A stretch of 64,000 nt of DNA. Source: an uncultured Christensenella sp. (lineage in GTDB: Bacteria; Bacillota; Clostridia; Christensenellales; UBA3700). Below are positions 9,054-31,659 of this stretch, piece by piece (the stretch's first letter is position 1; every line of letters starts with the position of its first letter). Where the stretch lies: positions 80,492-144,491 of the forward strand of contig CAJTYW010000003.1 of NCBI GenBank assembly GCA_910583995.1. The letters are read 5' to 3'. The notes under the pieces were generated by a model. It was given only the letters and a program-made list of their open reading frames with translations, searched no databases and had not been told where the DNA came from. The position numbers and the translations under genes were made by a program.

Positions 9054-9093
9054 TAATTAAAAATATTGCTTTTAAAATTTATTTTAATTTAAA

Positions 9094-9124
9094 AAATCTA
9101 TCGGATTTCCGATAGATTTTTTTT
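9094..9124 (+). terminator. Intrinsic terminator after the oxidase gene
   Basis: 11-bp stem AAATCTATCGG / CCGATAGATTT followed by a T-run. Confidence 0.85.
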
Positions 9125-9316
9125 GGTATTTTTTATTGATTTTTTAATCATAAAAAAATCTTTTTTTTGCCTTTTTGAATAATTTAACATTTTTGAAAAA
9201 ATAATTGTCATAAAAATATTTCAATTTTTTAAAATGGGTGTATTATGAAATTATAGAAGAAAATGTATAGTAAAATCAACATAATTCGACATAATCGGAA
9301 ATATTTTGATTTTTTC

Positions 9317-9345
9317 TTGACATTCAATAATATTAAATATATAAT
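9317..9345 (+). promoter_or_regulatory. Perfect consensus sigma-A promoter TTGACA-17-TATAAT driving the phage-type activator, with a 0A-box heptamer TTCGACA at 9285-9291
   Basis: TTGACA at 9317-9322, 17-nt spacer, TATAAT at 9340-9345. Confidence 0.7.
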
Positions 9346-9380
9346 AATTGAATATTATTGAAAACACAATGGAGGCGAAA

Positions 9381-9956
9381 ATGGAAAACTTCTTATGGCA
9401 AAAAACTTTGTTGGATATGTATCATACTTTTGATAGAATTGTGATTATATTGGACAATAAATTCAATCGACTGGTGTCAAATTCACTGCATAACAATAAT
9501 ACTACTTTTTTATATGATGAAATGTTGACTTTTATGGCAAGAAAAAACAATTGTTTGACGGCAAAATCAATTGTTTGTAATGCTTTAGATAAATTATCTG
9601 CTACAAATCAAAATATTTTAAAATTTTATTATAAAGACAAAATGTCCTTTAAGGACATTGCAAAGAAAGAACAAATAAACATCAGACAAATTTTTAGGAA
9701 TTTTGATAAGGAATTATCAAAGTTTGCCTATTATTTATCCCAAGATGGTTATGACACCACGGTTATTGAAAAAGAGTTTGGTTCAGATAATCTGTTTGCC
9801 AATACTTATCAAAGATTAGAGAAAAAGGCAAATGACAAGGCAAAGACTACTATCCAACTTACAGAAGTATATGTTGATAACAAAAATAAAAATTATCAAT
9901 CTACTTCAAACTTTGTTAATGAAAATTTTGTTGCCGTCAATTCTTTTATTCGTTAA
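9381..9956 (+). CDS. Phage late-gene transcriptional activator, ArpU/RinA-like (sigma-70 region-4-type HTH)
   Basis: ALDKLSATNQNILKFYYKDKMSFKDIAKKEQINIRQIFRNFDKELSKF matches the sigma region 4 pattern. Lies just upstream of the terminase block. Start chosen after GGAGG; ATG 9369 is also possible, while TTG 9348 falls at or before the predicted TSS. Confidence 0.65.
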   Translation: MENFLWQKTLLDMYHTFDRIVIILDNKFNRLVSNSLHNNNTTFLYDEMLTFMARKNNCLTAKSIVCNALDKLSATNQNILKFYYKDKMSFKDIAKKEQINIRQIFRNFDKELSKFAYYLSQDGYDTTVIEKEFGSDNLFANTYQRLEKKANDKAKTTIQLTEVYVDNKNKNYQSTSNFVNENFVAVNSFIR

Positions 9957-9990
9957 GTAAAATGAGTATTATACTACATTTTTTATTTTT

Positions 9991-10018
9991 AACACTCTTT
10001 AACGGAGTGTTATTTTTT
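9991..10018 (+). terminator. Intrinsic terminator after the activator gene (makes it monocistronic)
   Basis: Stem AACACTC / GAGTGTT followed by ATTTTTT. Confidence 0.75.
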
Positions 10019-10077
10019 ACGATAAATGTTTTTGGTCATAGGTTAAGATTTAATTTAATAGATTGTTACTTTATTTA

Positions 10078-10866
10078 TTAATAATCATAAAAATCGTCTT
10101 TTGCGGCTCTGCGTTTGCTGCTTGTTGGTTTAAATAAAAGAAAAATTACAACAACTACCACAACGCATAAGGTAATTATCAAAATAACACGGGTTATTGT
10201 TGCTTTGTTTACAGAAGCTGGTGTTTTTTCTGGGTTATCTGGAGTTAGGTTAGTATTTGAATTTTCCGCATCTGGATTTACTGGATTTGGGTGCGGAGTA
10301 TAAATTATAGTTGGACTACAATGTCTTTTTGGAATATAGCCTATTGTTGCATCAGATAATTTTGCAAGTATGTAAGAGCCATTTTCAGAGTAGGCGATAA
10401 AATCAAGTTTATCATTATTTTTGATTTTACGGCAGTTTGTTTCGCTATCGTTTAAATTGAATATCATTAAAAGTTCGTCTTCATTTGTGGACGATGCTGT
10501 AAGTTTACTACTGCTTACAAAAAACGGATTGGAAATGTTGTTTATTGATTTTTTGCTTAGGTCAGATGATGGAACAAGTCCTGTAATTCCGTTATAGGCA
10601 ACATATCTGTAGGTTACATCATTGATTACTACATCGGGATTTCCTGTTGCTTGTACATAATAGGTGGCGTTTAATTGAATATTACCGCGTATATTTTGTC
10701 CTTGTGGAATCATTAATGTATTTTGTTTAATTAAAAAATAGCTTTTTATATTATCTTCTGCAAATACAACATTATTTGCCATTAAAGTTGAACAGCAAAC
10801 AAAGACTAATGTGATAAAGATAAAAAAATAAAAGAACAAATATTTTAATGAAAGTTTATTCATTAT
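10078..10866 (-). CDS. Secreted, C-terminally membrane-anchored protein with SH3b-like segments
   Basis: Start at MNKLSLKY (signal peptide). SH3b-like strings YRYVAYNGITGLVPSSDL and GSYILAKLSDATIGYIPKRH, Pro-rich linker, C-terminal TM plus basic tail. Confidence 0.6.
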   Translation of the reverse strand: MMNKLSLKYLFFYFFIFITLVFVCCSTLMANNVVFAEDNIKSYFLIKQNTLMIPQGQNIRGNIQLNATYYVQATGNPDVVINDVTYRYVAYNGITGLVPSSDLSKKSINNISNPFFVSSSKLTASSTNEDELLMIFNLNDSETNCRKIKNNDKLDFIAYSENGSYILAKLSDATIGYIPKRHCSPTIIYTPHPNPVNPDAENSNTNLTPDNPEKTPASVNKATITRVILIITLCVVVVVVIFLLFKPTSSKRRAAKDDFYDY

Positions 10867-11000
10867 ATGCCCCCTTAATTTGTAGATTAGAGATATTTTA
10901 GCAATAAAATTCAAAAAAAACTTTCTACAATTGTAAAAAATTGTCATAAAAGACTTGATAATTACAAAAAAGGCTTAAAAATGGATATAGGAGAGTTGGA

Positions 11001-12431
11001 ATGAGCGAAAAAATCGATGACATAGTAAAAAGGATTCTCAGTATTGAAAGAGAAGAGATAAGACGTAAAAATAAAAATTGTCTACAGTATTATAATACGG
11101 GAGAAAAAGTTCATAAAAAACAGCTTGAGTTTCACAAGTGTTTAAAACGCAATCGCTGGGTATTTGGTGGTAACAGAAGCGGCAAGACAGAGTGTGGTGC
11201 GGTGGAAGCAATATGGTGGGCAAGAGGGATTCACCCATATAGAGAAAATAGACCTAATACAATTGGTTGGGTTGTATCATTGTCATACGAAGTGCAAAGA
11301 GATGTTGCTCAAGCAAAAATATTACATTATTTAAACCCAGATTGGATAGAAGATATTGTAATGATGTCAGGAAGAAAAGGAGCACCTGAGTATGGTATCA
11401 TAGACCATATCGTAATTAAAAATGTGTTTGGTGGTTTATCTAAAATAGGGTTTAAAAGCTGTGACCAAGGAAGAGAAAAATTTCAAGGAACATCGCTTGA
11501 CTATGTTTGGTTTGACGAGGAACCGCCTTATGATATTTACGAAGAGTGCATTATGCGTGTGCTTGATAGGCGCGGGGAAGTATGGGGAACAATGACCCCA
11601 CTTAAAGGACTGACTTGGGTGTATGAAGAGATTTACCTTAATAAATCAAATAATCCTGAAGTATGGCATATTCACATTGAATGGGGGGATAACCCATTTT
11701 TGAATAAAAAGGAAGTGGAATTACTTACAAAAACATTGAGTAGTGAGTCTGTAGATAGCAGAAGATTTGGTAATTTTTCGGCAGATAGCGGGCTTGTTTA
11801 TCCTGAATTTGACCCTAAAACTCATATTGTTGAGCCGTTTTCAGTGCCAACAGAGTGGCAGGATAACATTGCTATTGACCCGGGGCTTAACAACCCGCTT
11901 GCTTGTTTGTTTTTTGCAGTGGACTATGACGGAAATATTTATGTTGTAGGGGAACATTACGAAGCAGGACGGGATATTGACTACCATACTGAAAAGATTT
12001 TTGCTTTGGCAGATAAGCTAAATTGGCATAGAGATAGCAAAGGCAGGCTTACAGCACTTATTGATAGTGCAAGTAAACAACATACCTTGGCATATAGCAA
12101 AAGTGTTGCAGAACTTTTTTATGAAAAAGGCATTGTGGTAAATCCTAATGTTAACAAAGATATGTTTAGTGGTATAGCAAGAGTTAAAGAATACCTTAAA
12201 GCTAGACCGCAAAAAATATTTATTTTTAAAAACTGTGTAAATCTTATAAGAGAATTAAAGTCATATTGGTGGTCTAATGGTGATAACCCAAAAAAGGTGG
12301 ACGACCATACACTAGATGCACTCAGATATTATATTATGACAAAGCCATCACTTAATGAAAGCAAACTAAAAGAGCTAAGTGAGATTGAAAAGGACAAAAC
12401 CAAACTTATGAGAAGATTGAGAAGGTTGTAA
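11001..12431 (+). CDS. terL: Phage terminase large subunit
   Basis: Walker A-like GGNRSGKTECG, Walker B LDYVWFDEE, C-terminal nuclease-type DDHTLDALRYY. Confidence 0.9.
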   Translation: MSEKIDDIVKRILSIEREEIRRKNKNCLQYYNTGEKVHKKQLEFHKCLKRNRWVFGGNRSGKTECGAVEAIWWARGIHPYRENRPNTIGWVVSLSYEVQRDVAQAKILHYLNPDWIEDIVMMSGRKGAPEYGIIDHIVIKNVFGGLSKIGFKSCDQGREKFQGTSLDYVWFDEEPPYDIYEECIMRVLDRRGEVWGTMTPLKGLTWVYEEIYLNKSNNPEVWHIHIEWGDNPFLNKKEVELLTKTLSSESVDSRRFGNFSADSGLVYPEFDPKTHIVEPFSVPTEWQDNIAIDPGLNNPLACLFFAVDYDGNIYVVGEHYEAGRDIDYHTEKIFALADKLNWHRDSKGRLTALIDSASKQHTLAYSKSVAELFYEKGIVVNPNVNKDMFSGIARVKEYLKARPQKIFIFKNCVNLIRELKSYWWSNGDNPKKVDDHTLDALRYYIMTKPSLNESKLKELSEIEKDKTKLMRRLRRL

Positions 12432-12474
12432 ATGGAGCATTTAACTAATTATTATAAGTGTCAAGGGGGAGAAA

Positions 12475-12798
12475 ATGGCTGTTAAAAAAAGCAAACGTGA
12501 AATTATGCTAGATACGCTTTATAAAAAAGGTATAGGTTACAAGACGGAAGAAATTGTGGAAGAGTACGCAAGCGAAGAAAAAGGCGGAGAACTTTTAAAA
12601 AGGAAAGTAACCGTAAAAAATGTGCCACCCGATGTTGTAGCATTAAAAGCGTATCTTGATATTTCCAAACAAGCGGACGAATTTAACAATTTGAGTGACA
12701 GCGAATTGCAGGCTGAAAAACTCAGATTGCTCAAATTATTAAAAAATATGGAGGATAAAAATGAAACTGGCGAATTTGAAAGTAAAGGTAAGGTGTGA
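12475..12798 (+). CDS. Phage hypothetical protein (possible small terminase / DNA-recognition subunit)
   Basis: 107 aa, basic N-terminus and coiled-coil C-terminus, adjacent to terL. The assignment is positional only. Confidence 0.4.
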   Translation: MAVKKSKREIMLDTLYKKGIGYKTEEIVEEYASEEKGGELLKRKVTVKNVPPDVVALKAYLDISKQADEFNNLSDSELQAEKLRLLKLLKNMEDKNETGEFESKGKV

Positions 12799-12988
12799 TT
12801 TCGGACTTTGTAAAAATACTGCAAAGTACGAAATTTATGAGGACGGAGTGCTAGCACGCAGAAAGATTTATTTGTGTGAAGATTGTGCAAAACAAATGTT
12901 TGAGTTGTTATCAAAAGAGTTTGTGCCTAAAAGTCCGATTAATGTAATAAACAGGTCAGTAAAAAGACAAGGAGAAAAGTTGCAATGA
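12761..12988 (+). CDS. Phage small Cys-pair (zinc-ribbon-like) protein
   Basis: RBS GGAGGA. CDFGLC ... CEDC pairs. Overlaps its neighbours on both sides. Confidence 0.5.
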   Translation: MKLANLKVKVRCDFGLCKNTAKYEIYEDGVLARRKIYLCEDCAKQMFELLSKEFVPKSPINVINRSVKRQGEKLQ

Positions 12989-14862
12989 AAAAAATAGATT
13001 TTGCAGAAGATATTGTTAGAGAAGTTTTACAAGACTTTGAAAGAATAAGCGATGAGAGAAAAGCGCTTGAGAGCCAATGGCGACTTAATATGAATTTTGT
13101 GCAAGGCAATCAATATTGTGAAATTTCTCCTGTCGGCGATGTTGAAGACTATGGAAAGCAGTATTTTTGGCAGGAAAGAGAAGTGTTTAATCATATTGCA
13201 CCTATTATTGAAACAAGGCTTGCAAAACTTGGAAGAGTACAAGCAAATGTAAGTGTGCGTCCGTTTAGCCAAGATGAAAAAGACATTAATGTTGCAAAAC
13301 TTTCCACAAGTGTTTTAAAAACCATTTCTGAAGAAAACAAGCTGTCTGAAATAATGATGCAAAGTAATATTTGGAGTGAGATTTGCGGTAGTGTGTTTTT
13401 TAAGGTGATTTGGAATTCGGAAAAAGGTAGAGCAATAGGAGAGACCAAAGATAAAAAGCTTATTAAAGAAGGGGATATTGATATTGTTTTATGTCCGCCT
13501 TACGAAATTTTTCCGGATAAAATAACTAACAATAGCATTGAAGATTGCAAGTATTTGTATCACGCAAAAGTTTATTCCGTAGAAGAAGTAAAAGAGCTTT
13601 GGAATGTTGATGTAGAGCCACAAACTCTTCAGGTATTTGGGTTTGACAATGTGCCTAATGGTGGTGGGCTTGGCTATACTGCAAACAATGCAAGATATGC
13701 GACTTCGAATAAAGAAAATTCCTGTCTTGTAATTGAAAAGTTTGAAAGGCCTTCTAAAAAATACCCTAAAGGTAGACATATTATTGTTGCGGGCGAAAAA
13801 TTAGTTATTGCAGAAGATTTGCCATATCAAACGGAACAAGATGGCGGTTATGGATTGCCTTTTGTCAGAAAAACTTCGCTTGAGAGTGTAACTTGCTTTT
13901 ATGGTTTAAGTATTGTTGAAAGAATTATTCCTGTACAAAGAGCATACAACGGAATTAAAAATAAAAAGCACGAGTTTATGAATAGGATAGCAATGGGTGT
14001 GCTTGCCGTAGAAGATGGTTCTGTTGATACGGATAATTTGGAAGAAGAAGGGTTGTCGCCAGGTAAAGTTTTGATTTATCGTGGTGGTTGCAATCCGCCT
14101 AAAATGCTAAATATGGGCAGTGTGCCAAGCGAATTTGACAGTGAAGAAGCAAGGCTTGAAGATACATTTGTTAATATTACAGGCGTAAGTGAATTTATGA
14201 GAAGTTCCAGCCTTCCTGCAAATGTAACTTCAGGTGTTGCTATCGGATTGTTACAAGAGCAAGATGACACAAGAATATCTATGTCCGCTGAATCTATAAG
14301 AAGTGCGGTAAAATTGATTGGACAATTGATTTTGAGATTATACAAACAATTTGCTGTTTCAAGAAGATTAAAAAGAATTGCAGGGGATAACGGAGAAATA
14401 CAATTGCTTTATTTCCAAGGTTCGGATTTGGCGTCAGATGATTTGGTATTTGATACAGATAATGAGCTTAACGAGACACCTGCTAACAGAAGAAGTATGG
14501 TAATTGAACTTGTTAAAATGGGAATGTTTAGAGACTCTGACGGCAATATGAGTGAGAGAAGTAGGCTTAAACTTTTGGAAATGCTTGGATTTGGTAACTG
14601 GGAGTCTGTACAAGATATCAACGAATGCCATAGAGTAAAAGCACAAAAAGAGAATTTGGATATTTTGCTAAAAGACATATCCGCTATGGAATATGACAAT
14701 CACCAATTGCATATTGATGAGCATATAAAAGCAATTATCAACGAAGAAAATAAAGAGCGTGTACAAAAATTAGACGCACATATTAAAGAACATCAAATGT
14801 TGCTTGCAATGACAAGTATGAATAACAATTTATTAATGGAGGACAATAATGCAGGAGAATAA
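12985..14862 (+). CDS. Phage portal protein
   Basis: 625 aa, positioned between terminase and scaffold/capsid. Size and order are typical of portals. Confidence 0.75.
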   Translation: MKKIDFAEDIVREVLQDFERISDERKALESQWRLNMNFVQGNQYCEISPVGDVEDYGKQYFWQEREVFNHIAPIIETRLAKLGRVQANVSVRPFSQDEKDINVAKLSTSVLKTISEENKLSEIMMQSNIWSEICGSVFFKVIWNSEKGRAIGETKDKKLIKEGDIDIVLCPPYEIFPDKITNNSIEDCKYLYHAKVYSVEEVKELWNVDVEPQTLQVFGFDNVPNGGGLGYTANNARYATSNKENSCLVIEKFERPSKKYPKGRHIIVAGEKLVIAEDLPYQTEQDGGYGLPFVRKTSLESVTCFYGLSIVERIIPVQRAYNGIKNKKHEFMNRIAMGVLAVEDGSVDTDNLEEEGLSPGKVLIYRGGCNPPKMLNMGSVPSEFDSEEARLEDTFVNITGVSEFMRSSSLPANVTSGVAIGLLQEQDDTRISMSAESIRSAVKLIGQLILRLYKQFAVSRRLKRIAGDNGEIQLLYFQGSDLASDDLVFDTDNELNETPANRRSMVIELVKMGMFRDSDGNMSERSRLKLLEMLGFGNWESVQDINECHRVKAQKENLDILLKDISAMEYDNHQLHIDEHIKAIINEENKERVQKLDAHIKEHQMLLAMTSMNNNLLMEDNNAGE

Positions 14863-15448
14863 TACAGTAGAACAAATAGCTGAAGTAACACCGGATACAA
14901 CAATTGAGTCTCAAGAAATAGAACAAACTCAAGCGAATGACAACATATCCGACAATGAAGAAACAGCTGTCTCTTATGGTAAATTCAAGTCAGTAGAGAG
15001 CTTATATGAAGGATATCAACAATTACAAAAGGAATTTACAAAAAAGTGTCAAGTATTAAAGGAACTTGAAAATCGTGTTGGAGATAATAAACATATTCTA
15101 GATAAAATGATTGAAGTAAATCCTGAACTAGGGCAATTTGCAGATGAGCTTAAAAATGTCAGCGATGTAAGCGGTATAAGTTTAAAACTAGCCGAATTGC
15201 TAGCTGGCAAAATCAACGAGCCTTGCAATATTATAAATGACGAGAATTTTTTGAATAATTATGTTTATCAAAACGAAGGTATAATTAACAAAATTGTATC
15301 CGATTATTTGGATAGTCTTGTCAGTATAAAAATTCCGCAAACAATTTCAAAAGGCGGAAATTCGTATGTGTCGCCTACATACAGACCGCGTACTTTAAAT
15401 GAGGCGGGTAAAATGGCGAAAAAATTTATAGAAACACGGAGATTTTAA
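14849..15448 (+). CDS. Phage scaffolding protein (putative)
   Basis: 199 aa, acidic and helical, immediately upstream of the capsid gene. Confidence 0.6.
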   Translation: MQENNTVEQIAEVTPDTTIESQEIEQTQANDNISDNEETAVSYGKFKSVESLYEGYQQLQKEFTKKCQVLKELENRVGDNKHILDKMIEVNPELGQFADELKNVSDVSGISLKLAELLAGKINEPCNIINDENFLNNYVYQNEGIINKIVSDYLDSLVSIKIPQTISKGGNSYVSPTYRPRTLNEAGKMAKKFIETRRF

Positions 15449-15451
15449 AAT

Positions 15452-16615
15452 ATGGTAAATTTGGAAACAGCAGATAAAGCGTTAAAAAGTGTATATTTGG
15501 GTGTAGTTACTGAGCAATTAAATGCACAAGTAAATCCATTGCTTACAAAAATCGAACAAACTTCAAGTGATGTTTGGGGTAAAGATATTATTAAAGTTGT
15601 ATCTTATGGCTTAAATGGTGGTGTTGGTGCAGGTGACGAAATCGGTAGTCTACCTATGGCAGCAGGTAACAACTATGCTCAATATAAATTGGAGCTTAAA
15701 AACCTTTATGGTAGCATTGAAATTTCAGATAAGGCAATCAGAGCTTCTCAAAGCAATGTTGGTGCTTTTGTTAATCTTCTTAACGCTGAAATGGAAGGTT
15801 TGTTAAAAGCTTCTAAGTATAATCTTGGTAGAATGCTTTATGGCGATGGCGACGGCAAGCTTGCAAATGTTGCAAAAGCAGCAACTGCAGCTACAAACAC
15901 TATTAGCTTAACAAGTGTTAAAAAAGTTGCAATTGGTATGGTTATTGACGTTATTGATAACAGCGGTAGCAAGAAAGTATCTCAAGCTAGAATTATCGAT
16001 GTTGATAGAGCAACAAAATCAATCAAAATTGATAAGCAAGTATCAACTCTTGCAACTACAGATTATATCACTATTCAAAACTCAAAAGGTTATGAACTTA
16101 CAGGTTTAGGTGCGATTTTTGGCACAAAAGACATTTATGGTTTAAAGAGAAGCGAAAACACTTGGCTTAATCCATATACAAAAAATGTTGGCGGTACACT
16201 TGATATGGGTACTATTCAAGAAGCAATTGATTTTGTTGACGAAACAGCAGGTTCTGCAGTTAACTTTATCACTTGTGCTTATGATGTTAAAAAGGAATAT
16301 ATCAAAAACTTGTCTGCTAACAGATTGAATGTGGATTATATGACTTTGGACGGCGGCTTTAAAGCTTTGTCTTACAGCGGTATTCCTCTAGTAAGCGATA
16401 AGTTTATCGAAGGTGGTGAAATGTATTTATTAAATACAGATGACTTTAAAATGCACCAACTTTGCGATTGGAGATGGCTTGAAGGGGATAATGGTAATGT
16501 TATCAAACAAAAACTTGGTAGTCCTACATATACTGCTACTTTGGTTAAATATGCTGATATTGTTTGCGACAGACCTTGTGGTCAAGCAAAACTTACCGGT
16601 ATTGTGTGTGAGTAA
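15452..16615 (+). CDS. Phage major capsid protein
   Basis: 387 aa, positioned after portal and scaffold, good RBS. No protease gene is present. Confidence 0.75.
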   Translation: MVNLETADKALKSVYLGVVTEQLNAQVNPLLTKIEQTSSDVWGKDIIKVVSYGLNGGVGAGDEIGSLPMAAGNNYAQYKLELKNLYGSIEISDKAIRASQSNVGAFVNLLNAEMEGLLKASKYNLGRMLYGDGDGKLANVAKAATAATNTISLTSVKKVAIGMVIDVIDNSGSKKVSQARIIDVDRATKSIKIDKQVSTLATTDYITIQNSKGYELTGLGAIFGTKDIYGLKRSENTWLNPYTKNVGGTLDMGTIQEAIDFVDETAGSAVNFITCAYDVKKEYIKNLSANRLNVDYMTLDGGFKALSYSGIPLVSDKFIEGGEMYLLNTDDFKMHQLCDWRWLEGDNGNVIKQKLGSPTYTATLVKYADIVCDRPCGQAKLTGIVCE

Positions 16616-16618
16616 TTT

Positions 16619-16987
16619 ATGAAAGAGCTTAGATTGATTAGTACGAATTGTTATAATATTCCCGAGCGTGTTAGAGAGTTAGATGACGATTACAGATTGT
16701 ATTATAATGTTAGACGAAATGTAATTGAACTTCATAATTTAAGACATATTCCTACCTTTCAATTAGTGCTTCCGTATAGTCAATTGGATACGCGTACTAT
16801 TGAATATATAAGGCGTACCAGAGTAGATAAAATTATAAACGAAATAAAAGAGATTGATGAGTATAATAATAATTTGGAAAATAAACTAATCAATCAAACT
16901 CTTGACGAAATTCACGAAAAAACCAAAAGCGTAATAAACTATATGAATAGGGGTGGAAGTCAAATTCCCTCCTATTCTGAATTGTGA
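16619..16987 (+). CDS. Phage hypothetical protein
   Basis: ORF in the tightly packed structural block. Confidence 0.55.
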   Translation: MKELRLISTNCYNIPERVRELDDDYRLYYNVRRNVIELHNLRHIPTFQLVLPYSQLDTRTIEYIRRTRVDKIINEIKEIDEYNNNLENKLINQTLDEIHEKTKSVINYMNRGGSQIPSYSEL

Positions 16988-16996
16988 GGGGATAAT

Positions 16997-17539
16997 ATGA
17001 AGGTTGAAGATGTTTTGACAGAAGTGTTGATAAGGTTAGGTGACAGGGATAAGTATGACATTATGAATTTGCCACAAGACGATGAAGAAATCAATACAAT
17101 AGTTAAATGTATTAATATGGTTATTTCTGAAATAGCAAGTGACTATTTGCCTGTTGAATTTGAAGAAGAAGTGGAAGTAATTAATGGTGTTATACCTTAT
17201 GATAATTTGTCAAAAAAATTGATTAATTTAAAAAATGTCACTAAAAACTCAACAAAAATCGACACTAAAATGTACCCTAATGAGCTTTTAGTTAAAGCTG
17301 ACGGTATGGTACGAGTGCAATATATGTATATGCCGAATGCAGTAAAACTTGGGGATATTATTTCACTTTCTCCTAAAATTACACTTATGCTTATCGTGTA
17401 TGGTGTGCTAGGAGAGTATTGCTTGCTACAAGGTAGATATGAAGATTCTAGCTTGTATGACAAAAGATATCGTGAAATGCTTAAAATTGCTTGTAGGGTT
17501 ACAAAAGAAATAAAGTTAAAACACGGTTGGTGGAATTAA
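16997..17539 (+). CDS. Phage hypothetical protein (possible head-tail adaptor)
   Basis: RBS GAGGGG. Positioned after the capsid gene. Confidence 0.5.
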   Translation: MKVEDVLTEVLIRLGDRDKYDIMNLPQDDEEINTIVKCINMVISEIASDYLPVEFEEEVEVINGVIPYDNLSKKLINLKNVTKNSTKIDTKMYPNELLVKADGMVRVQYMYMPNAVKLGDIISLSPKITLMLIVYGVLGEYCLLQGRYEDSSLYDKRYREMLKIACRVTKEIKLKHGWWN

Positions 17540-18876
17540 TGAAAAGAATTTATTACAAAAAATTTGTAAGTACCCGAAAGGTTAAGGTTGCGAATTTTAA
17601 AGGTGTAAGTCGTGACTGGTATTCAAAAAGCTTGCCTATTGATTTTGCTTTAAAACAAGAAAATCTAAAGATTGTTAATGGGGCATTGATTCCGTCAATG
17701 TCTCCAAAAAGCATTGAGCTGACTTTTGACGAAAGCATAAACAAGGTAATTCCTTTTTATGATAATGGTACTAAATTATTTGTCGCTTGCAGTGATTCAA
17801 ATTACATAATAGAAGAAAATAACGGCGAAATAATAAAAACGAAAATTGAAAAAGACTGCGAAATAATAGATAGTACCAATTATAAATATGGCGAAGATAA
17901 CTTTGTGATTTTAGCAACAGATGTCGGCGTTAAAAAATTAATAGGTGGCGTGATTGAAAGTAGCGATGTAGATTTGAAATTTAGCAATATTTGCAATCAT
18001 TTTTACAGAATATTTGGTGCAGAAAAAAATTCGACTAAACTACTTTTCAGTGACGATTTTGCACCATTTAACTGGGAGCAAAGTATTGACGAAGGTGGAT
18101 ATATTAATTTATCTTTTGACTATGGCAAGATAACAGACATTATAAGTTTTAATGAATATCTTGTGGTATGTCAGGAAGATTGTTTTACAAAGATTACTGC
18201 TTATTCTGAGCAGGATTCCTTTGTTGTAAAAACTATAACTTCGCCAAGTAACATTAAGGAAGGTAGCACAGTAAATTGCGGAAGTCAGGTAATGTATGCA
18301 ACTGGTAACGGATTTGGTATTTTTGACGGATATGATTGCAGAACAATTTGCGAAGAACTTGCGGGATTTTTAAAAGACTCGGATATTGAATCAGTTGCAA
18401 CAAGCGATTATTGTTATTTTTTGTGTAAGGACAAGTCTAGCGATATTAAAAATAACTATATTATTGCTTATAATTTGCTATACAGAGATTATCATTTTAT
18501 AACGGAAAATGAAGCTGAATTTCTTGTAAAAGTTAAGTTTAATGGCGAAGAAAAAGTGCTTATCGTATGTGACAAAGAGATAAAAGTTTTGTCAGCGGAT
18601 ATTAATAGCAGTAATAAAATATGGCGTTCAGGCAGTATTGATTTTGGTAATTCTGCAGATTTTAAACTTTTAAGAAGAATAGAGTTTGGTGGTAATACCA
18701 TTATTGATTTAAAAATTGCAGTAGACGGCAAAAATTATTTTTTTAATATCACAAATAAAAGAAGTCAACTGCTGAATTTAAAAGGTAAGGAGTTTGAAAT
18801 AGAAATTGCACCAAAAGGTAGAAATATCAATGTTCCGTCACCTGTGATTGAATATTCAGTATTGGAGGAAAATTAA
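17539..18876 (+). CDS. Phage hypothetical structural protein, 445 aa
   Basis: ATG overlaps the previous stop (TAATG). Beta-rich sequence with no motif recognised. Confidence 0.55.
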   Translation: MKRIYYKKFVSTRKVKVANFKGVSRDWYSKSLPIDFALKQENLKIVNGALIPSMSPKSIELTFDESINKVIPFYDNGTKLFVACSDSNYIIEENNGEIIKTKIEKDCEIIDSTNYKYGEDNFVILATDVGVKKLIGGVIESSDVDLKFSNICNHFYRIFGAEKNSTKLLFSDDFAPFNWEQSIDEGGYINLSFDYGKITDIISFNEYLVVCQEDCFTKITAYSEQDSFVVKTITSPSNIKEGSTVNCGSQVMYATGNGFGIFDGYDCRTICEELAGFLKDSDIESVATSDYCYFLCKDKSSDIKNNYIIAYNLLYRDYHFITENEAEFLVKVKFNGEEKVLIVCDKEIKVLSADINSSNKIWRSGSIDFGNSADFKLLRRIEFGGNTIIDLKIAVDGKNYFFNITNKRSQLLNLKGKEFEIEIAPKGRNINVPSPVIEYSVLEEN

Positions 18877-19241
18877 TGAATAAGTTAAGCAATGTGCTTG
18901 AAGAGTTGGAAAATAAATTTGATAGACTAAGACAAAAAGTTAAACAAAGCAAAGTTATTTGTAAAAACAATACAGAATCAAGTCCGCAAATAGTATTTGC
19001 TCATAATGTGTATGGAGCAAATAAAATTTTAACCTACGATATTACTGTAAGTGCTTTAAAGCCTGTTAATATTGTTATTAAACTTGATGATGTAATTATA
19101 AGTACTGTGCAAGGACTTATGGCGTATGGTGAAATATTGCTTAAGTCAAATAAACTTTATAGTCTTGTAGTTGAATGTACAGGTGAGAGTATACTTGCCG
19201 GCAAGCTTAAACTTGAGAGTGCTGACCTTAGGGTAATATAG
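18876..19241 (+). CDS. Phage hypothetical protein
   Basis: TAATG overlap with the upstream gene. Confidence 0.55.
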   Translation: MNKLSNVLEELENKFDRLRQKVKQSKVICKNNTESSPQIVFAHNVYGANKILTYDITVSALKPVNIVIKLDDVIISTVQGLMAYGEILLKSNKLYSLVVECTGESILAGKLKLESADLRVI

Positions 19242-19249
19242 GAGTAAAT

Positions 19250-20218
19250 ATGGGAATTTTTAAGGAAATCAGTGACTGGTGGAATGATTTGTTCAAAGAC
19301 GATGTCACCAAAGAACAAGAGCAAAAAATGATTACCGAACTTGCAGGAATGGAAGCTAAAGAAAGAGAAAGATTGGAAAATATCGTCAAAGAATATGCAG
19401 CTAGCAACAGACCGCAAGATTTGGAATTTGAATATCTTGAAGAATATGTACCTATCGATAATGAAACATTAATGGATAAAAGTGAAAAGCAATATTCTGA
19501 AATTTACAATGCCGAAAAAGATTTGGCAAATGAAAAATATCAAGAGAAACTAAATAAAGTAGAAGAAACCGAAAAAGGTTACATAGATAATGCAGAAAGT
19601 AAAAACAACAATTATAAAGAAAAGTATAAGGACAAGACAGAGAGTTTTAAATCTACTGCAAGCAAAAATGGAATTGCGGATTCTTCTATTATGGGTGCAA
19701 AATCTGAAGACTTGAATAATGAAAGAGACAGATACATTGATGATGTAATGAAAGCTTTGCAAAGCAAATTGAATAGCACTGCTAATAAAAAAGAAGATAT
19801 TCTAAACGAAAAGAATTTGAAAATTCAAAATTTGGATAGCAACTTTACTAAAAATGTTGAAGACTTGTTTAATAAATATCTAAAAGAAGAAGAGAATAAG
19901 GTTAAAGAAGTTGAAAAAGCAAATAAAGATACCGCTAATAAGGAAAAAGCTTACAAAGAGTATCAAGACAGAATAGTAAAAGAAAAGGCCAAAGAAATGG
20001 AAAACCTTCAAAAGGAAATGAAGGAAAAGGAAGAAAGGGGAATATACGAAGACCCTACTCGTGAAGCAGAATATGATAAAAGATTAGAAATAGCAAGAGA
20101 TTTTTATAAAGGGTTTACAAAGAAATCTGCTATAAAAGCTATCCAGGAAAATAGTACTTTGCAAAAGTTTTTAGGATTGAATTATTATAGATTGCTTGAG
20201 GAAATTCAAAATGGATAA
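19250..20218 (+). CDS. Phage Lys/Glu-rich coiled-coil protein
   Basis: RBS TAGGAG. Long K/E-rich heptad-like sequence. Confidence 0.55.
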   Translation: MGIFKEISDWWNDLFKDDVTKEQEQKMITELAGMEAKERERLENIVKEYAASNRPQDLEFEYLEEYVPIDNETLMDKSEKQYSEIYNAEKDLANEKYQEKLNKVEETEKGYIDNAESKNNNYKEKYKDKTESFKSTASKNGIADSSIMGAKSEDLNNERDRYIDDVMKALQSKLNSTANKKEDILNEKNLKIQNLDSNFTKNVEDLFNKYLKEEENKVKEVEKANKDTANKEKAYKEYQDRIVKEKAKEMENLQKEMKEKEERGIYEDPTREAEYDKRLEIARDFYKGFTKKSAIKAIQENSTLQKFLGLNYYRLLEEIQNG

Positions 20219-20456
20219 CGAGATTTTATTGATGGTGGCAAAAAGCGGCGTATTTGCCGTGTTATTTGTGATTTTGTTATTTTATGTGTTAAGAGATTCA
20301 AGAAATCGTGAGCAGAATTATCAAAAAGTTGTAAATGTTTTAACAAAAGAACTAGGTGCGGTTATGAATATCGAAGATGACATTAAGGATATTAAAAACA
20401 CTATAACACTACAGCCACTTTATAATGCAGAGGTAACTTATGAAGGGGAAATTTAA
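20211..20456 (+). CDS. BhlA/UviB-family holin-like protein
   Basis: GVFAVLFVILLFYVLRDSRNRE closely matches BhlA GPFAVLFCWLLFYVMKTSKERE. RBS GAGGA. Confidence 0.8.
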   Translation: MDNEILLMVAKSGVFAVLFVILLFYVLRDSRNREQNYQKVVNVLTKELGAVMNIEDDIKDIKNTITLQPLYNAEVTYEGEI

Positions 20457-20688
20457 AAATTACGGCTTGTGGATAAGTATTGTCAGTGCAGTGCTTATGT
20501 TGCTACAAGCAATGGGATTAAAGTTTGATTTGCCTTATGTTAACGAGATAATTACTTCTATTTTGGGTGTACTTGTGACATTGGGTATTATCAGTAATCC
20601 ATCAGACGGAAGCGGTTATACCGATAAAAGCGGTGACATAATCGAAAAAGTCGAAGACGAAGATATAAACTCAGATAATAATATTTGA
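20440..20688 (+). CDS. Phage holin (phi LC3 / Phage_holin_1-like)
   Basis: 82 aa with two TM segments (LWISIVSAVLMLLQAMG, ITSILGVLVTLGIISNP) and an acidic tail. Confidence 0.7.
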   Translation: MKGKFKNYGLWISIVSAVLMLLQAMGLKFDLPYVNEIITSILGVLVTLGIISNPSDGSGYTDKSGDIIEKVEDEDINSDNNI

Positions 20689-20754
20689 TTACATATCTTT
20701 GTAAATTGAAACAATTTAATATGTAATAAGTATTTATTATAAATTGCTTATTAC

Positions 20755-20790
20755 AAAAAAAGTCCTTAATTGATTTAAGGACTTTTTATT
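20755..20790. terminator. Bidirectional terminator between the holin gene and murG
   Basis: Stem AAAGTCCTTAA / TTAAGGACTTT flanked by an A-run and a T-run. Confidence 0.85.
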
Positions 20791-27769: not shown

Positions 27770-27802
27770 AAATGCACTTCTATTTGAAGTGCATTTGTTT
27801 TT
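27770..27802. terminator. Bidirectional terminator between parC-like and the 829-aa gene
   Basis: Stem AAATGCACTTC / GAAGTGCATTT followed by a T-run. Confidence 0.8.
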
Positions 27803-30290
27803 ATGCTAATATATCAGGTTCAATATTTTCAACTTTCTTTTTTTGCATTTTGGTTTTGTGCATAAACAATATTGCAATTATTGTAAATGCTACTATTGCA
27901 ACCGAAGTAATAGTTATTGCAATAATTTGATTTGGTGTTAGACCATTTGCTTGTAAGTTTTCATTTAAAATATAACCTATTTTGTCTTTATAAAACACTT
28001 TAGTAAAAGTACTTTCAGGGTTATATTCTCCTACAATTTGAATATCTTCTCCATCTTTTATATCGTCAAATAATATTTCTGAATTTATATCCGCTTGTTC
28101 GTATATTTTGATGTTAGTACCGATTTTCGGAGCTTTTGTTTTCATAAATATAATATTTTGCTCAGGAGTAGTAGGGACTTTTTTAGCAAGATAATCGGCA
28201 TTAACATAACCAGTATAATTTTTGCCAGCACTATTAATTGTTATTTCATACCAGTTCCAGCTACTATCAGATATTTTGCTATTACATATAACTTCAGTTT
28301 TAGGAGTTAATGTAAATTCCTTATCGTCAATTTTAAGCTTTTCGGAATATTTAAATGGGTATTTGTAAACTGCAACATTGCTAACTATTGCAGACATTTT
28401 TTGCCCTTTTAATTTAGTGTCTTTTGCTAAAACTTGTAAATCTTGTGCCAAAATATATTCCTTTTGAGACAAGTGTTCGGCAGTTACATAGTAATAATCA
28501 TTTTGAGCATAAGTTATTTTTGCCAAAATCAAAAATACTGAATCTTTTGGGATATGTCTTGCAGATTCCGGATTGTTAGGTGTGATATAGGCAGTTGTTT
28601 CATTTATGATTTTTCCTGCGTTTATTATATCAAACTCTGTAGGAGTATCGTCAAAATGAATATTTTTTGTGCCTATTAAACCAATTTTTTCGCCGTCTAT
28701 CTCAAATAACAAATGGTCATCTTCGCTAGTATAGTAGTAGTGAGCATTAATGCTATCAACAGCTGTTGATATGTTTGAGTCTTTTGAGAAAAGATTTATT
28801 ACATAGTCTTTCTCACGGGTAAACCTGCCGTTTTGTGAGTATTTTGTAATAGTGCCATCTTTTTCAACATACAAATTACCCCTAAAGTCAATATTGTAAT
28901 TTCTACCTGCGGCAACATTTGTTGTATCAGTAAAAACAGCTTTTTCAGTGTTCTCTAAATCGTATTTTGCAATGTATCCTGTGGCTTTATTAATTAAATA
29001 AGCATAATTTGTGCTGACAGCGGTAGTTATTTCGTCTGCTGCAATACTAATGTTTTTAATTAGCTCGGTAAGAGTACTACCATCATAAGTCAAAACTTTA
29101 CCATCTTTTAAAACTAGCAACTTAGTATTGTAAACAGCAATTGATTGTACATTTTCTGCAATTAATTTATTGCTATCGTCATAAAGATTATTTTGATTAT
29201 CAATATAATAAATACGACCGCTTACTGCTGCAACTTTTATTGGAGTGTAGTCTACAGGAAAAGCTGTTCTTTCTTTATTTGAAATATTACGCTTTACAAT
29301 TCTTTTATTGTTAGTATCTGCAATGTATAAATAACTTCCGTCGCTAAAAACGCTTTTTGGACTATCAAATCTTTGTATATCGTCGCCTTTACTTGTTATT
29401 GTGTTTTCAAATGCGTCATTATTGAATAAGTAAACTTTATGATTTTGAGCGGTAACATACAATTTATTATTGCTAAAAACCAATTTGTTAAAGTTTATTT
29501 CTTCATTGTATATTTGATTTTGAGCAGAATTTTTATATAGCTTACCACCTGCAATAAAATAAACTTGATTATCCACAACATAGTAATCTGTAAAAATGTT
29601 TCCAATATCTATTGTATGAATATCGACAAAAGAATTTGTTGCGTTGTTGTATTTTTTAATAATTGTGTTAGTGGTAGTGCTACTGAAAACATAAATTTCG
29701 TTGTTTATTATTTTTATATTGTTAACACTATTTACACCAATACCTATATTTAAATTGTTTTCTACTTTATTGCTTAAAATATTTTCTTTAGTTTCAGTAT
29801 CTGTAGTAATATCGTAAGTTGCAATGCTATTTGCAAGAATGATTGCAAGCTTATTATCTTTTTTACCGATTGACAAAATGTTTTGGTAATCAATATCTTG
29901 ATAAGATGTTTTAATTTGGGTTTCTGTATCAACAATACACAAGTTTGTGTTGTTATCTTTTATTATAAGTGCGATTATTTTGTTCCCAACAATTGTAAGT
30001 TTATCAATTCTCTCATCATTGCTTTGGGTTAAGTCTTTATAAAAGTAACTATATTTACTATCTTGCTTTTGAACAAAAAGAGTTTTCTCGTTTGCGACAG
30101 CTAAGTAATCGTCCGTTTTGTCTATTGCAATAGGATTGCTTAATTTCATATATCTTGCCATATCGGATAATACTACAGGCTCAAGCGTGTTATCACTCTC
30201 GCGTGCAAAATCTCCTTCTGCCAAAACGATTGGGAAGGCAAGTATTACTATTAATAGAATAAATATAATAAAAATAAGCGTTTTTTTCAT
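27801..30290 (-). CDS. Large surface protein: signal peptide, beta-propeller/NHL-like repeats, SH3b-like domains, C-terminal TM anchor
   Basis: N-terminal MKKTLIFIIFILLIVILAFPIVLAEG. NHL-like YLYIADTNNKRIVKRN. SH3b-like WYEITINSAGKNYTGYVNADYL and KVFYKDKIGYILNENL. C-terminal TM plus basic tail. Confidence 0.7.
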   Translation of the reverse strand: MKKTLIFIIFILLIVILAFPIVLAEGDFARESDNTLEPVVLSDMARYMKLSNPIAIDKTDDYLAVANEKTLFVQKQDSKYSYFYKDLTQSNDERIDKLTIVGNKIIALIIKDNNTNLCIVDTETQIKTSYQDIDYQNILSIGKKDNKLAIILANSIATYDITTDTETKENILSNKVENNLNIGIGVNSVNNIKIINNEIYVFSSTTTNTIIKKYNNATNSFVDIHTIDIGNIFTDYYVVDNQVYFIAGGKLYKNSAQNQIYNEEINFNKLVFSNNKLYVTAQNHKVYLFNNDAFENTITSKGDDIQRFDSPKSVFSDGSYLYIADTNNKRIVKRNISNKERTAFPVDYTPIKVAAVSGRIYYIDNQNNLYDDSNKLIAENVQSIAVYNTKLLVLKDGKVLTYDGSTLTELIKNISIAADEITTAVSTNYAYLINKATGYIAKYDLENTEKAVFTDTTNVAAGRNYNIDFRGNLYVEKDGTITKYSQNGRFTREKDYVINLFSKDSNISTAVDSINAHYYYTSEDDHLLFEIDGEKIGLIGTKNIHFDDTPTEFDIINAGKIINETTAYITPNNPESARHIPKDSVFLILAKITYAQNDYYYVTAEHLSQKEYILAQDLQVLAKDTKLKGQKMSAIVSNVAVYKYPFKYSEKLKIDDKEFTLTPKTEVICNSKISDSSWNWYEITINSAGKNYTGYVNADYLAKKVPTTPEQNIIFMKTKAPKIGTNIKIYEQADINSEILFDDIKDGEDIQIVGEYNPESTFTKVFYKDKIGYILNENLQANGLTPNQIIAITITSVAIVAFTIIAILFMHKTKMQKKKVENIEPDILA

Positions 30291-30486
30291 ATATCCCTCT
30301 TATAAAGCATATAATTACATTTTGATTATACACTAAATGTTAAAAAAAGTAAACATTTTTCTTTTAATTTTAAATTTGTCTTGCAAGTTTATGGAAATTA
30401 TGCTACAATAATTAGGATATTAAAATAATTATTTATAACAGCAAATAGTAGTTAATTGCTGCATATATATGACTAGCGGAGGCAAT

Positions 30487-31659
30487 ATGTCTAAAAATAA
30501 ATTTGTAAAACCTAATCAAGATTATATGCCTGAAGGGGATAGCAATCTTTTACAAAAAGATATTGAAGAATTGGGTTTAAGTGAATATACTTTGTCAAAA
30601 CTAAAAAGTGTGGAAATTTGTAAAATTATAGATTTGGCAAGATGTCAAATGAAACACTTATATAAAATCCCTGGAATGAATAAAAAAAACATTTTTGAAG
30701 TTCTTAAAAAATTGCAAAATGCAGGTTTGGATTTGAAAAGGTCGCCTGTTTTAGCGACAGTGGCAGAAGAAGGCTTACATAGCAAAAACGATGCAAAAGA
30801 TAATAGCGAAAGTGTAAAAGTCACAGGTAATCAAGACAAAAAAGCGGATAATAAAAAAAATAAGGACAATAAAAAGGAAAATATTGCTAAAAATAAAGGT
30901 AAAGGACAACCTGTAGTTGCAGAAAACAATACTGCGGAAATAGGGGCAAAGCAAAATAATAAAAACTTTGACAAAAAAAATAAGCAGGATAAAAAGAATA
31001 ATTCTGATATAAAACAAAATCAAAACAATGATAATAAAGTTGCTTTTGGAAATAAGAAACAGGCTATACCACAAAAACAAGTAAAAGTGGGAAATCCTAA
31101 TCCGATAAACAACTCTCCGCAAAAGCCACAAGCTGAGCCTAAGCGAATGAAAGTTAACAGCTATGATATTGATTCATTTATAAATGAAAATACATCTGGC
31201 AAGAAAACTTTGAAACAAGAGAGAGAAGAAAAAATTGCAAAAGCAATAAAAGATTTGCCACCTGTTAAAAATGCTGACGGACTATATAAATTTTACAGAC
31301 ACGGCAAATGGGGATACAAGACAGAGTCAGGTAAAGTGGTAATAGAACCAACTTATACAGAAGCTTTTAATTTTAGAGAAGGGCTTGCTTGTGTGGAACT
31401 TGACGAGAGATGTGGTTTTATTAACAAACAAGGTGAAATTGTAATTCCTATTCAGTATGATACAGCTTGCAGTTTTAGTGAAGGTGTTGCATCTGTAACA
31501 AAAGGCGACAAATGCGGTTATATAGATAAGGAAGGTAATATTGTTTTTGATTTTGTATATGAAGCTGCAACTTCTTTTGAAAATGATATTGCACTTGTTA
31601 AAAAAGACGGCAAATGGGGTTATATGGATAGAAAAACAGGAGAAATTAGACTTAGATAA
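30487..31659 (+). CDS. Protein with RNA-polymerase-alpha-CTD-like helix-hairpin-helix domain, N/K-rich linker and C-terminal WG (KWG) repeats
   Basis: ATG after GGAGG. IEELGLSEYTLSKLKSVEICKIIDL...IPGMNKKNIFEVLKKLQNAGLDL resembles the RpoA CTD. Repeats GKWGYKTESGKVVIEP, CGFINKQGEIVIP, CGYIDKEGNIVF, GKWGYMDRKTGE. Confidence 0.7.
   Translation: MSKNKFVKPNQDYMPEGDSNLLQKDIEELGLSEYTLSKLKSVEICKIIDLARCQMKHLYKIPGMNKKNIFEVLKKLQNAGLDLKRSPVLATVAEEGLHSKNDAKDNSESVKVTGNQDKKADNKKNKDNKKENIAKNKGKGQPVVAENNTAEIGAKQNNKNFDKKNKQDKKNNSDIKQNQNNDNKVAFGNKKQAIPQKQVKVGNPNPINNSPQKPQAEPKRMKVNSYDIDSFINENTSGKKTLKQEREEKIAKAIKDLPPVKNADGLYKFYRHGKWGYKTESGKVVIEPTYTEAFNFREGLACVELDERCGFINKQGEIVIPIQYDTACSFSEGVASVTKGDKCGYIDKEGNIVFDFVYEAATSFENDIALVKKDGKWGYMDRKTGEIRLR

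Follow-up and report, generated by a model that had tools for sequence, protein, structure and literature searches.

The genetic basis is known for only a few families of gene transfer agents (GTAs), nearly all of which come from Alphaproteobacteria. RcGTA, the reference system from this class, is inherited vertically under purifying selection, uses a small terminase subunit (TerS) without DNA-binding domain, and depends on accessory functions encoded outside its main cluster. It is of siphovirus type, with a tape measure and a tail tube; its head genes evolve slowly and its distal tail genes fast, its regulation involves CtrA and GafA, and its lysis genes are located outside the cluster. In Bacillus, PBSX and PBSZ are chromosomally fixed particle systems that package host DNA, with holin-dependent lysis and a sigma-like late regulator, PBSX being further characterized by a contractile myovirus tail, an endolysin and a repressor. 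Here we describe a gene cluster of about 11.5 kb (positions 9204-20787) located in a 64-kb stretch of DNA from an uncultured Christensenella sp. (GenBank assembly GCA_910583995.1, contig CAJTYW010000003.1), hereafter called the window, whose numbering is used for all positions. The cluster is composed of a regulator gene, a minus-strand membrane-protein gene and a 13-gene operon. It is a strong candidate for a new GTA-like system, for which particle formation, DNA packaging and transfer are predicted from the genes. The best reading is that this module is fixed in the chromosome of an uncultured, low-GC lineage of gut Clostridia, whose genomes are assigned at NCBI to Christensenella, Christensenellaceae or Clostridia.

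The closest described system is FpGTA from Faecalibacterium prausnitzii, for which the evidence includes electron microscopy, proteomics and packaged DNA (Nat Commun 2026, PMC12946183). FpGTA is encoded by a 10.5-kb operon in which a TerS without DNA-binding domain precedes the large terminase subunit (TerL), and which also encodes a 7sp4-like adaptor, an 8eap-like nozzle and an abundant protein annotated as 'TolA'. Its 40-nm particles carry about 8.5-9 kb of host DNA, and a second operon, 125 kb away, harbors a fibre, a receptor-binding protein (RBP), a holin and an endolysin (PMC12946183). In human faecal viromes, the same study also saw chromosomal fragments of 4.1 kb and 6.3 kb packaged in a GTA-like manner for the Christensenellaceae genera HGM11616 and QANA01, but it assigned no locus to this packaging (PMC12946183). 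The module described here resembles FpGTA as a chromosomal operon of about 10 kb from gut Clostridia that is conserved across species, has a podovirus-like architecture and a TerS without DNA-binding domain, and carries no integrase or replication genes. The order of the genes also corresponds, with TerL, portal, a small protein, the major capsid protein (MCP), an unassigned protein, the adaptor, a P22-gp10-like nozzle, a small protein and a charged helical protein. The last of these is annotated as 'TolA' in FpGTA and as a DUF7934 protein here; the correspondence between the two operons is one of annotations.

Several features separate the two systems. The MCP of FpGTA is annotated as 'N4-gp56 family', whereas the MCP of the present module corresponds to NF033394 (capsid_maj_Podo) and has no N4-gp56 match at E<=0.01. 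The TerS-like gene is located after TerL here and before TerL in FpGTA, and the holins are encoded within the operon here but in the second operon there. The module also includes a regulator with a sigma-70 region-4-type helix-turn-helix (HTH) and a divergent SH3-like membrane protein. Finally, particles and packaged DNA have been observed for FpGTA, whereas the module described here is known from its genes alone. Because the MCP family, the TerS position, the in-operon holins and the two upstream genes differ, the module was not filed as an FpGTA. It is regarded as another podovirus-type GTA-like element of gut Clostridia, with FpGTA as its closest described counterpart, and was possibly domesticated independently. 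A literature search found no description of the module or of DUF7934.

Other described systems are less similar. Like RcGTA, the module is a domesticated, vertically inherited cluster of head, tail and packaging genes under purifying selection, with an HTH-less TerS, slow head genes and fast tail genes; however, the gene set is unrelated, and a podovirus hub and in-operon holins are found here. The likeness to phages P22 and Sf6 lies in the PF16510 portal, in the order portal, scaffold, coat, small open reading frame (ORF), adaptor and hub, and in the fold of the hub. By contrast, the module harbors no tailspike and no early or lysogeny genes, and no sequence-level similarity to P22 gp4, gp10 and gp26 was found by hhalign with the profiles of o180, o445 and o322 (ORFs are named by their residue count). 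With PBSX and PBSZ it shares phage-derived particle genes fixed in a Firmicutes chromosome, holins and a sigma-like regulator, but no contractile sheath/tube, tape measure, endolysin or repressor, as known from PBSX or tailocins, was found in the module.

The operon (11001-20688, plus strand) encodes, in order, TerL, a TerS core, the zinc-ribbon-like o75, the portal, the scaffold, the MCP, o122, a putative adaptor, the hub, o121, the DUF7934 protein and two holins (Table 1). The genes are tightly packed, with TAATG overlaps at 17537-17541 and 18874-18878; the widest gap, which separates TerL from o107, measures 43 nt. Independent gene calls on the window's own genome (L027, ENA ERZ18773780, a 287-kb contig; L-numbers designate the related loci and contigs compared) agree with the ORFs used here. 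Upstream of the cluster are an FGGY kinase and an FAD oxidase gene (family scan and L027 gene table), followed by a terminator at 9091-9122. Downstream are murG, a hydrolase gene, and genes for a GyrB/ParE-type and then a GyrA/ParC-type topoisomerase subunit (called parE and parC below). The GC content of the module is indistinguishable from that of the surrounding DNA. Scans of the island ORFs with Pfam, PHROGs and NCBIfam revealed no integrase, repressor, replication, tape-measure, sheath/tube or peptidoglycan-hydrolase domain; no direct, att-like repeats link the two borders, no excision junctions were found, and a megablast search with the island had no match among 50,697 phage records. 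An earlier note, made from the letters of this stretch alone, had already described 13 same-strand ORFs with a large terminase, portal-sized, scaffold-like and capsid-sized products and two holins, preceded by a regulator gene with its own promoter and terminator, flanked by FAD oxidase and murG genes with terminators, and lacking the functions just listed. All of this holds, and to this inventory must be added the conserved minus-strand gene, which the note had not mentioned.

The module is conserved in a broad set of uncultured bacteria. A scan for the MCP pattern, covering one genome per GTDB species, identified 26 loci, all in metagenome-assembled genomes of uncultured Christensenella, Christensenellaceae or Clostridia, with MCP identities ranging from 93% to 45%. 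According to tblastn and ORF maps, these species-level genomes encode the same genes in the same order, from the regulator through the holins, o121 not being found in all of them. The gene downstream is murG in 13 of the 26 loci, mostly followed by the hydrolase gene and parE as in the window, and the closer loci among these 13 also have the FGGY and FAD-oxidase genes upstream. Three loci have parE/parC upstream instead, and the more distant ones are located among ddl, glmM, murC, icd and dinB-type genes. No recombinase was found beside any of the 26 loci. When metagenomes were searched with the FAD oxidase from the upstream flank, four close relatives were found, all with the module, and neither an empty site nor a complete prophage at this position was seen among the relatives, including these four. 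At least 56 IMG/VR contigs carry related capsid genes, most of them in the order TerL-portal-MCP, with GC contents of 0.25-0.50 among the 15 contigs examined. Related capsid proteins are encoded on hundreds of metagenomic contigs, and the MCP family comprises 3,461 clusters at 50% identity (E<1e-3).

Selection on the module was estimated as the ratio of nonsynonymous to synonymous divergence (dN/dS, Nei-Gojobori) in nine genome pairs. TerL, portal and MCP have dN/dS values of 0.02-0.05 in most pairs and up to 0.2 in single pairs (for instance 0.115 for TerL in L018-L026), and nearly all other module genes have values of 0.04-0.3. The exceptions are o75 and o121, whose ratios are about 0.4 in two divergent pairs, as well as the last holin, which reaches 0.46; for o121, the ratio is 0.04-0.2 in most pairs and 0.36 in the divergent pair L005-L006. 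The minus-strand membrane-protein gene is also constrained (0.01-0.14). In more than 20 species, none of the 15 genes is disrupted, and synonymous divergence (dS) is saturated in many pairs. In unsaturated pairs, dS is equal between the module and its flanks (the FGGY, FAD-oxidase, murG, hydrolase and parE genes), with 0.06-0.40 for the module and 0.24-0.32 for the flanks in L002-L004, and 0.15-0.39 and 0.33-0.34, respectively, in L007-L008. Among 11 genomes, the identity of TerL, portal and MCP follows that of murG and the hydrolase (Mantel r=0.97, p=1e-4), and this co-divergence with the flanks spans a deep divergence, with parE identity down to about 53-58%. In the deepest comparison, identity is 59% for head and packaging proteins, 43-48% for the murG and hydrolase flanks and 28% for tail proteins, which evolve fastest. 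The module has thus co-diverged with the chromosome over the long term under purifying selection, and the dN/dS, dS and co-divergence results exclude both neutral decay and recent independent insertions.

The packaging and head genes are the best identified of the module. TerL matches PF03237 (E=4e-13), PF17289 (E=2e-6) and phrog_2 (E=7e-32), and the three terminase motifs recognized in the earlier note are located at residues 56, 166 and 434. The portal belongs to the P22 type, with matches to PF16510 P22_portal (E=2e-21), PF23899 SU10_portal (E=1e-7) and phrog_156 (E=1e-39). The MCP scores 243 bits against NCBIfam NF033394 capsid_maj_Podo (cutoff 80) and matches phrog_14242 (E=1e-50); it is 22-29% identical to MCPs of actinobacterial phages. 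Between portal and MCP, as in P22, all loci keep a scaffold-sized ORF whose acidity (pI 4.75) and position designate its 199-aa product as a putative scaffolding protein; it has no family match. No family or PDB match was found for o122, which follows the MCP. In a sister lineage, represented by L007 (10001-11161) and L008 (5335-6495), the MCP is only 72-73% identical to that of the window, compared with 91% for TerL and 84% for the portal, and it is also the most diverged core gene between these two loci (89% identity, dN/dS 0.20), which suggests that a capsid allele was replaced by recombination or that its evolution was accelerated.

The product of the second gene of the operon is o107. By hhalign, a profile of 26 o107 orthologs matches the TerS of Terrisporobacter phage TVCOM_ph1 with a probability of 96.4% (E=1.1e-9), residues 8-63 of o107 aligning with residues 63-114 of the phage protein. 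Since o107 begins only 7 residues before the aligned core, the first 60 or so residues of the phage TerS, which bear its HTH (about 12-75), have no counterpart in it. By this alignment, o107 is a TerS core devoid of the HTH DNA-recognition domain. When the members of the o107 family were scanned one by one against Pfam, no match recurred consistently, and hhalign found no similarity to gp18 of Microbacterium phage Shocker, the protein at the corresponding position in the nearest deposited phage. The next gene, o75, is kept between the TerS-like gene and the portal gene in 19 loci and encodes a CxxxxC...CxxC zinc-ribbon-like motif; searches of Pfam, PHROGs, NCBIfam and profiles revealed no family match for it. 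In phage Shocker (L094:3363-7711), whose MCP is 29% identical to that of the module, terminase and portal are likewise separated by two small ORFs, and the layout TerL, two small ORFs and portal may be ancestral to the phage group that contains this phage.

The earlier note had suggested that the unassigned ORFs could encode a short podovirus-type tail, and structure prediction supports this. The AlphaFold2 model of o445, built with 14 homologs, is all-beta (pLDDT 80.8, pTM 0.81), and the top 14 Foldseek matches in the PDB are all chains of podovirus tail hubs or nozzles, with E-values from 1e-18 to 1e-8. The best fold match is Pa223 (E=1e-18, TM 0.73), the others among these 14 coming from GP4, Pan3, P22 gp10, Sf6 gp8, SU10 and the T7-like Kp9; matches to 8eap_D, 8u10 and 7sg7_S have E-values of about 1e-12, and T7 gp12 ranks 17th. 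By the fold of this model, o445 is a podovirus-type tail hub/nozzle. Directly before it, at the position of gp4 in P22 and of the adaptor in FpGTA, o180 has a match below cutoff to PF24175 SU10_adaptor (E=0.0038) and is a putative head-to-tail adaptor. The 322-aa protein matches PF25588 (DUF7934; E=6e-16) and harbors an invariant tip motif, ASKNGIADSSI; its AlphaFold2 model (pLDDT 91.5) is a long helical hairpin (helices 71-139 and 145-262), for which no fold match was found in the PDB. It is a candidate needle, plug or ejection protein. The fold search thus gave matches for o445 only. At the sequence level, profiles of o445, o322, o180, o107 and o122 gave nothing significant against PDB sequences, a tblastn search of the 50,697 phage records found no relative of o322 or o180, and o121 has no family match (Pfam, PHROGs, NCBIfam and profile searches). 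The cluster contains no tailspike-sized ORF and no recognisable gp7, gp20 or gp16 ejection proteins. Of the two holins closing the operon, the first belongs to the BhlA family (PF10960, E=3e-17), and the second matches phrog_297 (E=4e-10), with PF04531 and TIGR01598 below cutoff.

Some variant loci have between one and four large additional genes following the hub, which are absent from the window and its clade. In L037:11968-16419, L045:10805-15276, L016:4811-8094, L018:13373-15849 and L042:13573-16607, the hub is separated from the DUF7934 or holin genes by one to three such genes, whose products have 291-805 aa, one of them with a beta-propeller match. The products of these genes are probably fibres or spikes, and no homologs of them were found when the window was searched. 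Since the window's clade lacks them, the tail-tip content is the main variable among the modules.

Two genes precede the operon. The first is kept beside the module in at least 15 loci and was proposed in the earlier note to encode an ArpU/RinA-like late activator. This assignment is not supported, as Pfam and NCBIfam give no ArpU match and only sub-cutoff matches of the sigma-70 region-4 type, with a weak match to PF04545 and a match below cutoff to TIGR02937 (E=4e-5). An ortholog profile searched against the PDB matched region 4 of SigF (E=2e-5), as well as those of SigW and FliA. The protein is a putative activator of the structural operon. As for the host-type promoter that the note had placed before the late genes, the regulator gene does have one, a perfect match to the consensus, but the operon does not, as only a weak sigma-70-like site was found upstream of TerL (10955-10982). 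The second gene, divergent from the operon, encodes a 261-aa protein in which a signal peptide, a Pro-rich linker and a C-terminal membrane anchor can be read from the sequence. Its extracellular region is probably SH3-like; the positional ortholog in L018 has a weak SH3_3 match. Genes on the minus strand encoding 250-350 aa occupy the same position in nearly all loci, even in those with other outer flanks, and the membrane-protein gene belongs to the module.

Both control regions share a conserved element. The 11-mer ATTGTCATAAA has three exact copies in the 64 kb, two of which are located in the two control regions of the module (Table 1). In an alignment of the intergenic region between the membrane-protein gene and TerL from seven species, TTGTCATAA is the sole fully conserved block; its distance to TerL is 60-76 nt in L001, L002, L004, L005, L007 and L008, and 128 nt in L006. 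It is also found before the regulator gene, at 135-175 nt in L001, L002, L004 and L007 and at 322 nt in L006. Taken over both promoters, the box is conserved in 8 species. An interpretation of TTGTCATAA as a -35 element paired with a common -10 was rejected, the spacing being unequal at the two sites, and because of this difference the box is called only a candidate operator or activator site shared by the two promoters. The third copy of ATTGTCATAAA, at 62527-62537 between a mechanosensitive-channel gene and a cytidylate-kinase-like gene, may be due to chance or be a further target of the same regulator.

Two of the criteria for a GTA are that its structural and packaging genes lie in the host chromosome without genes for autonomous replication, integration or excision, and that they descend vertically with their host under purifying selection; both were found for this module. 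Three further criteria concern the particles themselves, which would package more or less random host DNA and not their own genes, have a head capacity below the length of DNA that encodes the particle, and deliver their DNA to recipient cells; the HTH-less TerS is an indirect sign of the first of these three. The earlier note had offered two readings, GTA-like domestication and a recently decayed prophage, and the conserved and intact module, its low dN/dS and its co-divergence with the flanks speak for domestication. Probably, the locus is a P22/Sf6-style short-tailed phage module for morphogenesis and lysis that was domesticated anciently and that the host maintains as a particle system of the GTA type. 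That it is a functional particle system kept by its host is very probable; that its particles package host DNA non-specifically, in the manner of a GTA, is a good deal less certain, although still probable.

A working scheme can be proposed for such a system. A signal would relieve control at the TTGTCATAA boxes, and the regulator, expressed from its own strong promoter, would switch on the 13-gene operon with its weak promoter. Procapsids would then assemble from the portal, scaffold and capsid proteins, whose genes were assigned above, and TerL together with the HTH-less TerS would fill the heads by a headful mechanism without sequence choice, mostly with chromosomal DNA. Such non-specific packaging by an HTH-less TerS is predicted by analogy with the TerS proteins of RcGTA and FpGTA. 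The adaptor, the gp10-like hub, o121 and the DUF7934 protein would close the portal as a stubby tail, of which the hub has a recognized fold. The two holins would permeabilise the membrane, and a wall hydrolase encoded elsewhere, or a host autolysin, would complete the release. A receptor-binding fibre or spike, which is not encoded in the cluster of this clade, would either be encoded elsewhere, as in operon II of FpGTA, or be absent.

Several points weigh against this interpretation. Particles, packaged DNA and transfer are deduced for an element of which only genes have been seen, and the size of the capsid, and hence the limit for packaging of the 11.5-kb locus by itself, cannot be read from the sequence. 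The TerS homology leans on one phage sequence, labelled as TerS by its depositor and whose own Pfam match, to GP3_package, is below cutoff, and the adaptor and scaffold calls are positional or sub-threshold. Family scans found no endolysin or receptor-binding protein in the cluster or in the window, which leaves release and adsorption unexplained; likewise, no second operon with fibre, RBP, holin and endolysin was found in the 64-kb window.

An alternative, following a PBSX-like logic, is that the particles are agents of killing or lysis and not of transfer. They would be made and might package DNA, without delivering it to recipients, their benefit being to kill competitors, to release public goods or extracellular DNA by lysis through the holins, or to act as decoys against related phages. 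This is unlikely, although the BhlA family of the first holin carries the PHROGs label 'involved in bacteriocin production or immunity', the cluster encodes no recognisable receptor-binding protein or ejection-protein set, and the co-inherited, surface-anchored SH3-like protein could serve self-protection or wall targeting; the same caveat was raised for FpGTA by its authors (PMC12946183). However, few genes of the module are as strongly constrained as those for TerL, the TerS core and the portal, with dN/dS values of 0.02-0.05 in most pairs, which argues that DNA packaging itself is under selection. Moreover, no contractile or other killing apparatus was found, and a podovirus-type hub is a DNA conduit.

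It is very improbable that the module is a capsid-forming satellite resembling the capsid-forming phage-inducible chromosomal islands (cf-PICIs), or another mobile island making its own heads and relying on a helper phage for replication, fibres or endolysin. It does encode its own TerL, TerS-like protein, portal, scaffold, MCP and connector, with neither fibre nor endolysin, and IMG/VR pipelines have repeatedly called it viral. But no integrase, AlpA, primase/replicase or replication module and no att repeats or sites were found, and the module occupies the same chromosomal site and has co-diverged with its flanks across a deep divergence. It also encodes its own adaptor and hub, whereas cf-PICIs take their tails from helper phages. 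As for the inert remnant of an old podophage, deprived of its early half and drifting to decay, which the earlier note had kept as its alternative, the missing early genes and the location between housekeeping genes with terminators on both sides would fit it, but it is refuted by purifying selection on intact genes in loci so old that neutral sequence would long since hold stops and frameshifts, by the conserved cis element at both promoters and by the co-divergence with the flanks, and it is hardly credible.

Table 1. Features of the GTA-like module, in window positions
Feature	Position	Strand	Basis or remark
Conserved box ATTGTCATAAA, copy 1	9204..9214	+	upstream of regulator gene; candidate operator/activator site
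Regulator promoter TTGACA-17-TATAAT	9317..9345	+	12/12 matches to sigma-70 consensus
Regulator, 191 aa, sigma-70 region-4-type HTH	9381..9956	+	PF04545 weak, phrog_36 E=7e-7; size from L027 gene call
Intrinsic terminator after regulator gene	9990..10012	+	
Divergent membrane protein, 261 aa	10078..10863	-	sequence features; positional conservation
Conserved box ATTGTCATAAA, copy 2	10940..10950	+	about 55 nt upstream of TerL; abuts weak -35 at 10955
TerL, 476 aa	11001..12431	+	PF03237, PF17289, phrog_2
TerS core homolog o107, 107 aa, without N-terminal HTH	12475..12798	+	hhalign to phage TerS
o75, basic, zinc-ribbon-like, 75 aa	12761..12988	+	Cys pattern; no family match
Portal, P22 type, 625 aa	12985..14862	+	PF16510, PF23899, phrog_156
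Putative scaffolding protein, 199 aa	14849..15448	+	predicted from position and acidic pI
MCP, 387 aa	15452..16615	+	NF033394, phrog_14242
o122, conserved, 122 aa	16619..16987	+	possibly head completion, by position; kept in >20 loci
o180, putative head-to-tail adaptor, 180 aa	16997..17539	+	predicted from position and sub-threshold PF24175
o445, tail hub/nozzle, beta-propeller, 445 aa	17539..18876	+	AlphaFold2 and Foldseek
o121, conserved, 121 aa	18876..19241	+	possibly tail plug or tip; kept in close clade
o322, DUF7934 protein, 322 aa	19250..20218	+	PF25588, AlphaFold2
BhlA-family holin, 81 aa	20211..20456	+	PF10960; gene call from L027
Second holin, phiLC3 / Phage_holin_1 type, 82 aa	20440..20688	+	phrog_297
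Terminator ending operon	20757..20787	+	faces convergent murG

The borders and some distant copies of the module show further variation. In L001 (13905-16475) and L006 (17121-20021), the last holin gene and the chromosomal gene that follows it are separated by a large inserted ORF; the 856-aa protein of L001 is a BspA-type leucine-rich repeat protein (LRR_5, E=8e-105), with which the 966-aa ORF of L006 clusters by BLASTP, and these inserts point to the 3' border as a site of variable cargo. TerL is split in three distant copies, L066:3376-7263 and L068:5870-9029 (both from IMG/VR, with a GC content of about 0.49) and L048:2559-6691. A 176-aa fragment of TerL is directly preceded by the genes for two large serine recombinases (510 and 536 aa) and for an Mtd_N-domain protein (the tropism determinant of diversity-generating retroelements), and chromosomal serA-like and serC-like genes and an RNase J gene follow the module. 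It looks as if another mobile element had inserted in the terminase gene, possibly as an excisable intervening element. By contrast, a 306-aa "fusion" of o122 and o180 on Logan contigs (L028:3-929, L029:1139-2059 and L030:539-1459) was rejected as an artefact in which an in-frame TGA is read through; the DNA is the same as that of the window at o122-o180, and the Logan calls on these low-GC contigs evidently ignored TGA as a stop.

Elsewhere in the window, the large ORFs downstream of the cluster, to about 63 kb, are of housekeeping type or without family match, and none is phage-like (the large-ORF scan covered the window except five ORFs upstream of 5843). Among them, an 829-aa protein (27801-30290, minus strand), whose only match is a weak C-terminal one to SH3_3, could be wall-associated and shares its SH3-like theme with the membrane protein of the module. 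A 396-aa protein (30469-31659) shows an unusual pairing of a region resembling the C-terminal domain of the RNA-polymerase alpha subunit with WG beta-repeats, and a 1239-aa protein (45294-49013, minus strand) has no Pfam match.

The broadest proposal, that the module represents an undescribed and independently domesticated podovirus-type GTA family, ancestral to much of the uncultured Christensenellales-like gut Clostridia, and at the same time the basis of the 4-6 kb packaging in Christensenellaceae, is a tentative one. The module provides a concrete candidate locus for the GTA-like packaging observed in this family. Since IMG/VR pipelines call this chromosomal module viral, counts of 'phage' and of 'transduction' are inflated by it. 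The occurrence of a TerS without DNA-binding domain here, as in RcGTA and FpGTA, makes convergent GTA evolution testable. FpGTA was the first podovirus-like example from the gut (2026), and the present module would be the second such family in gut Clostridia, probably of independent origin. If the broadest proposal is true, GTAs would be a common means of gene flow in gut Firmicutes, and an ancient one, and not a curiosity confined to Alphaproteobacteria.

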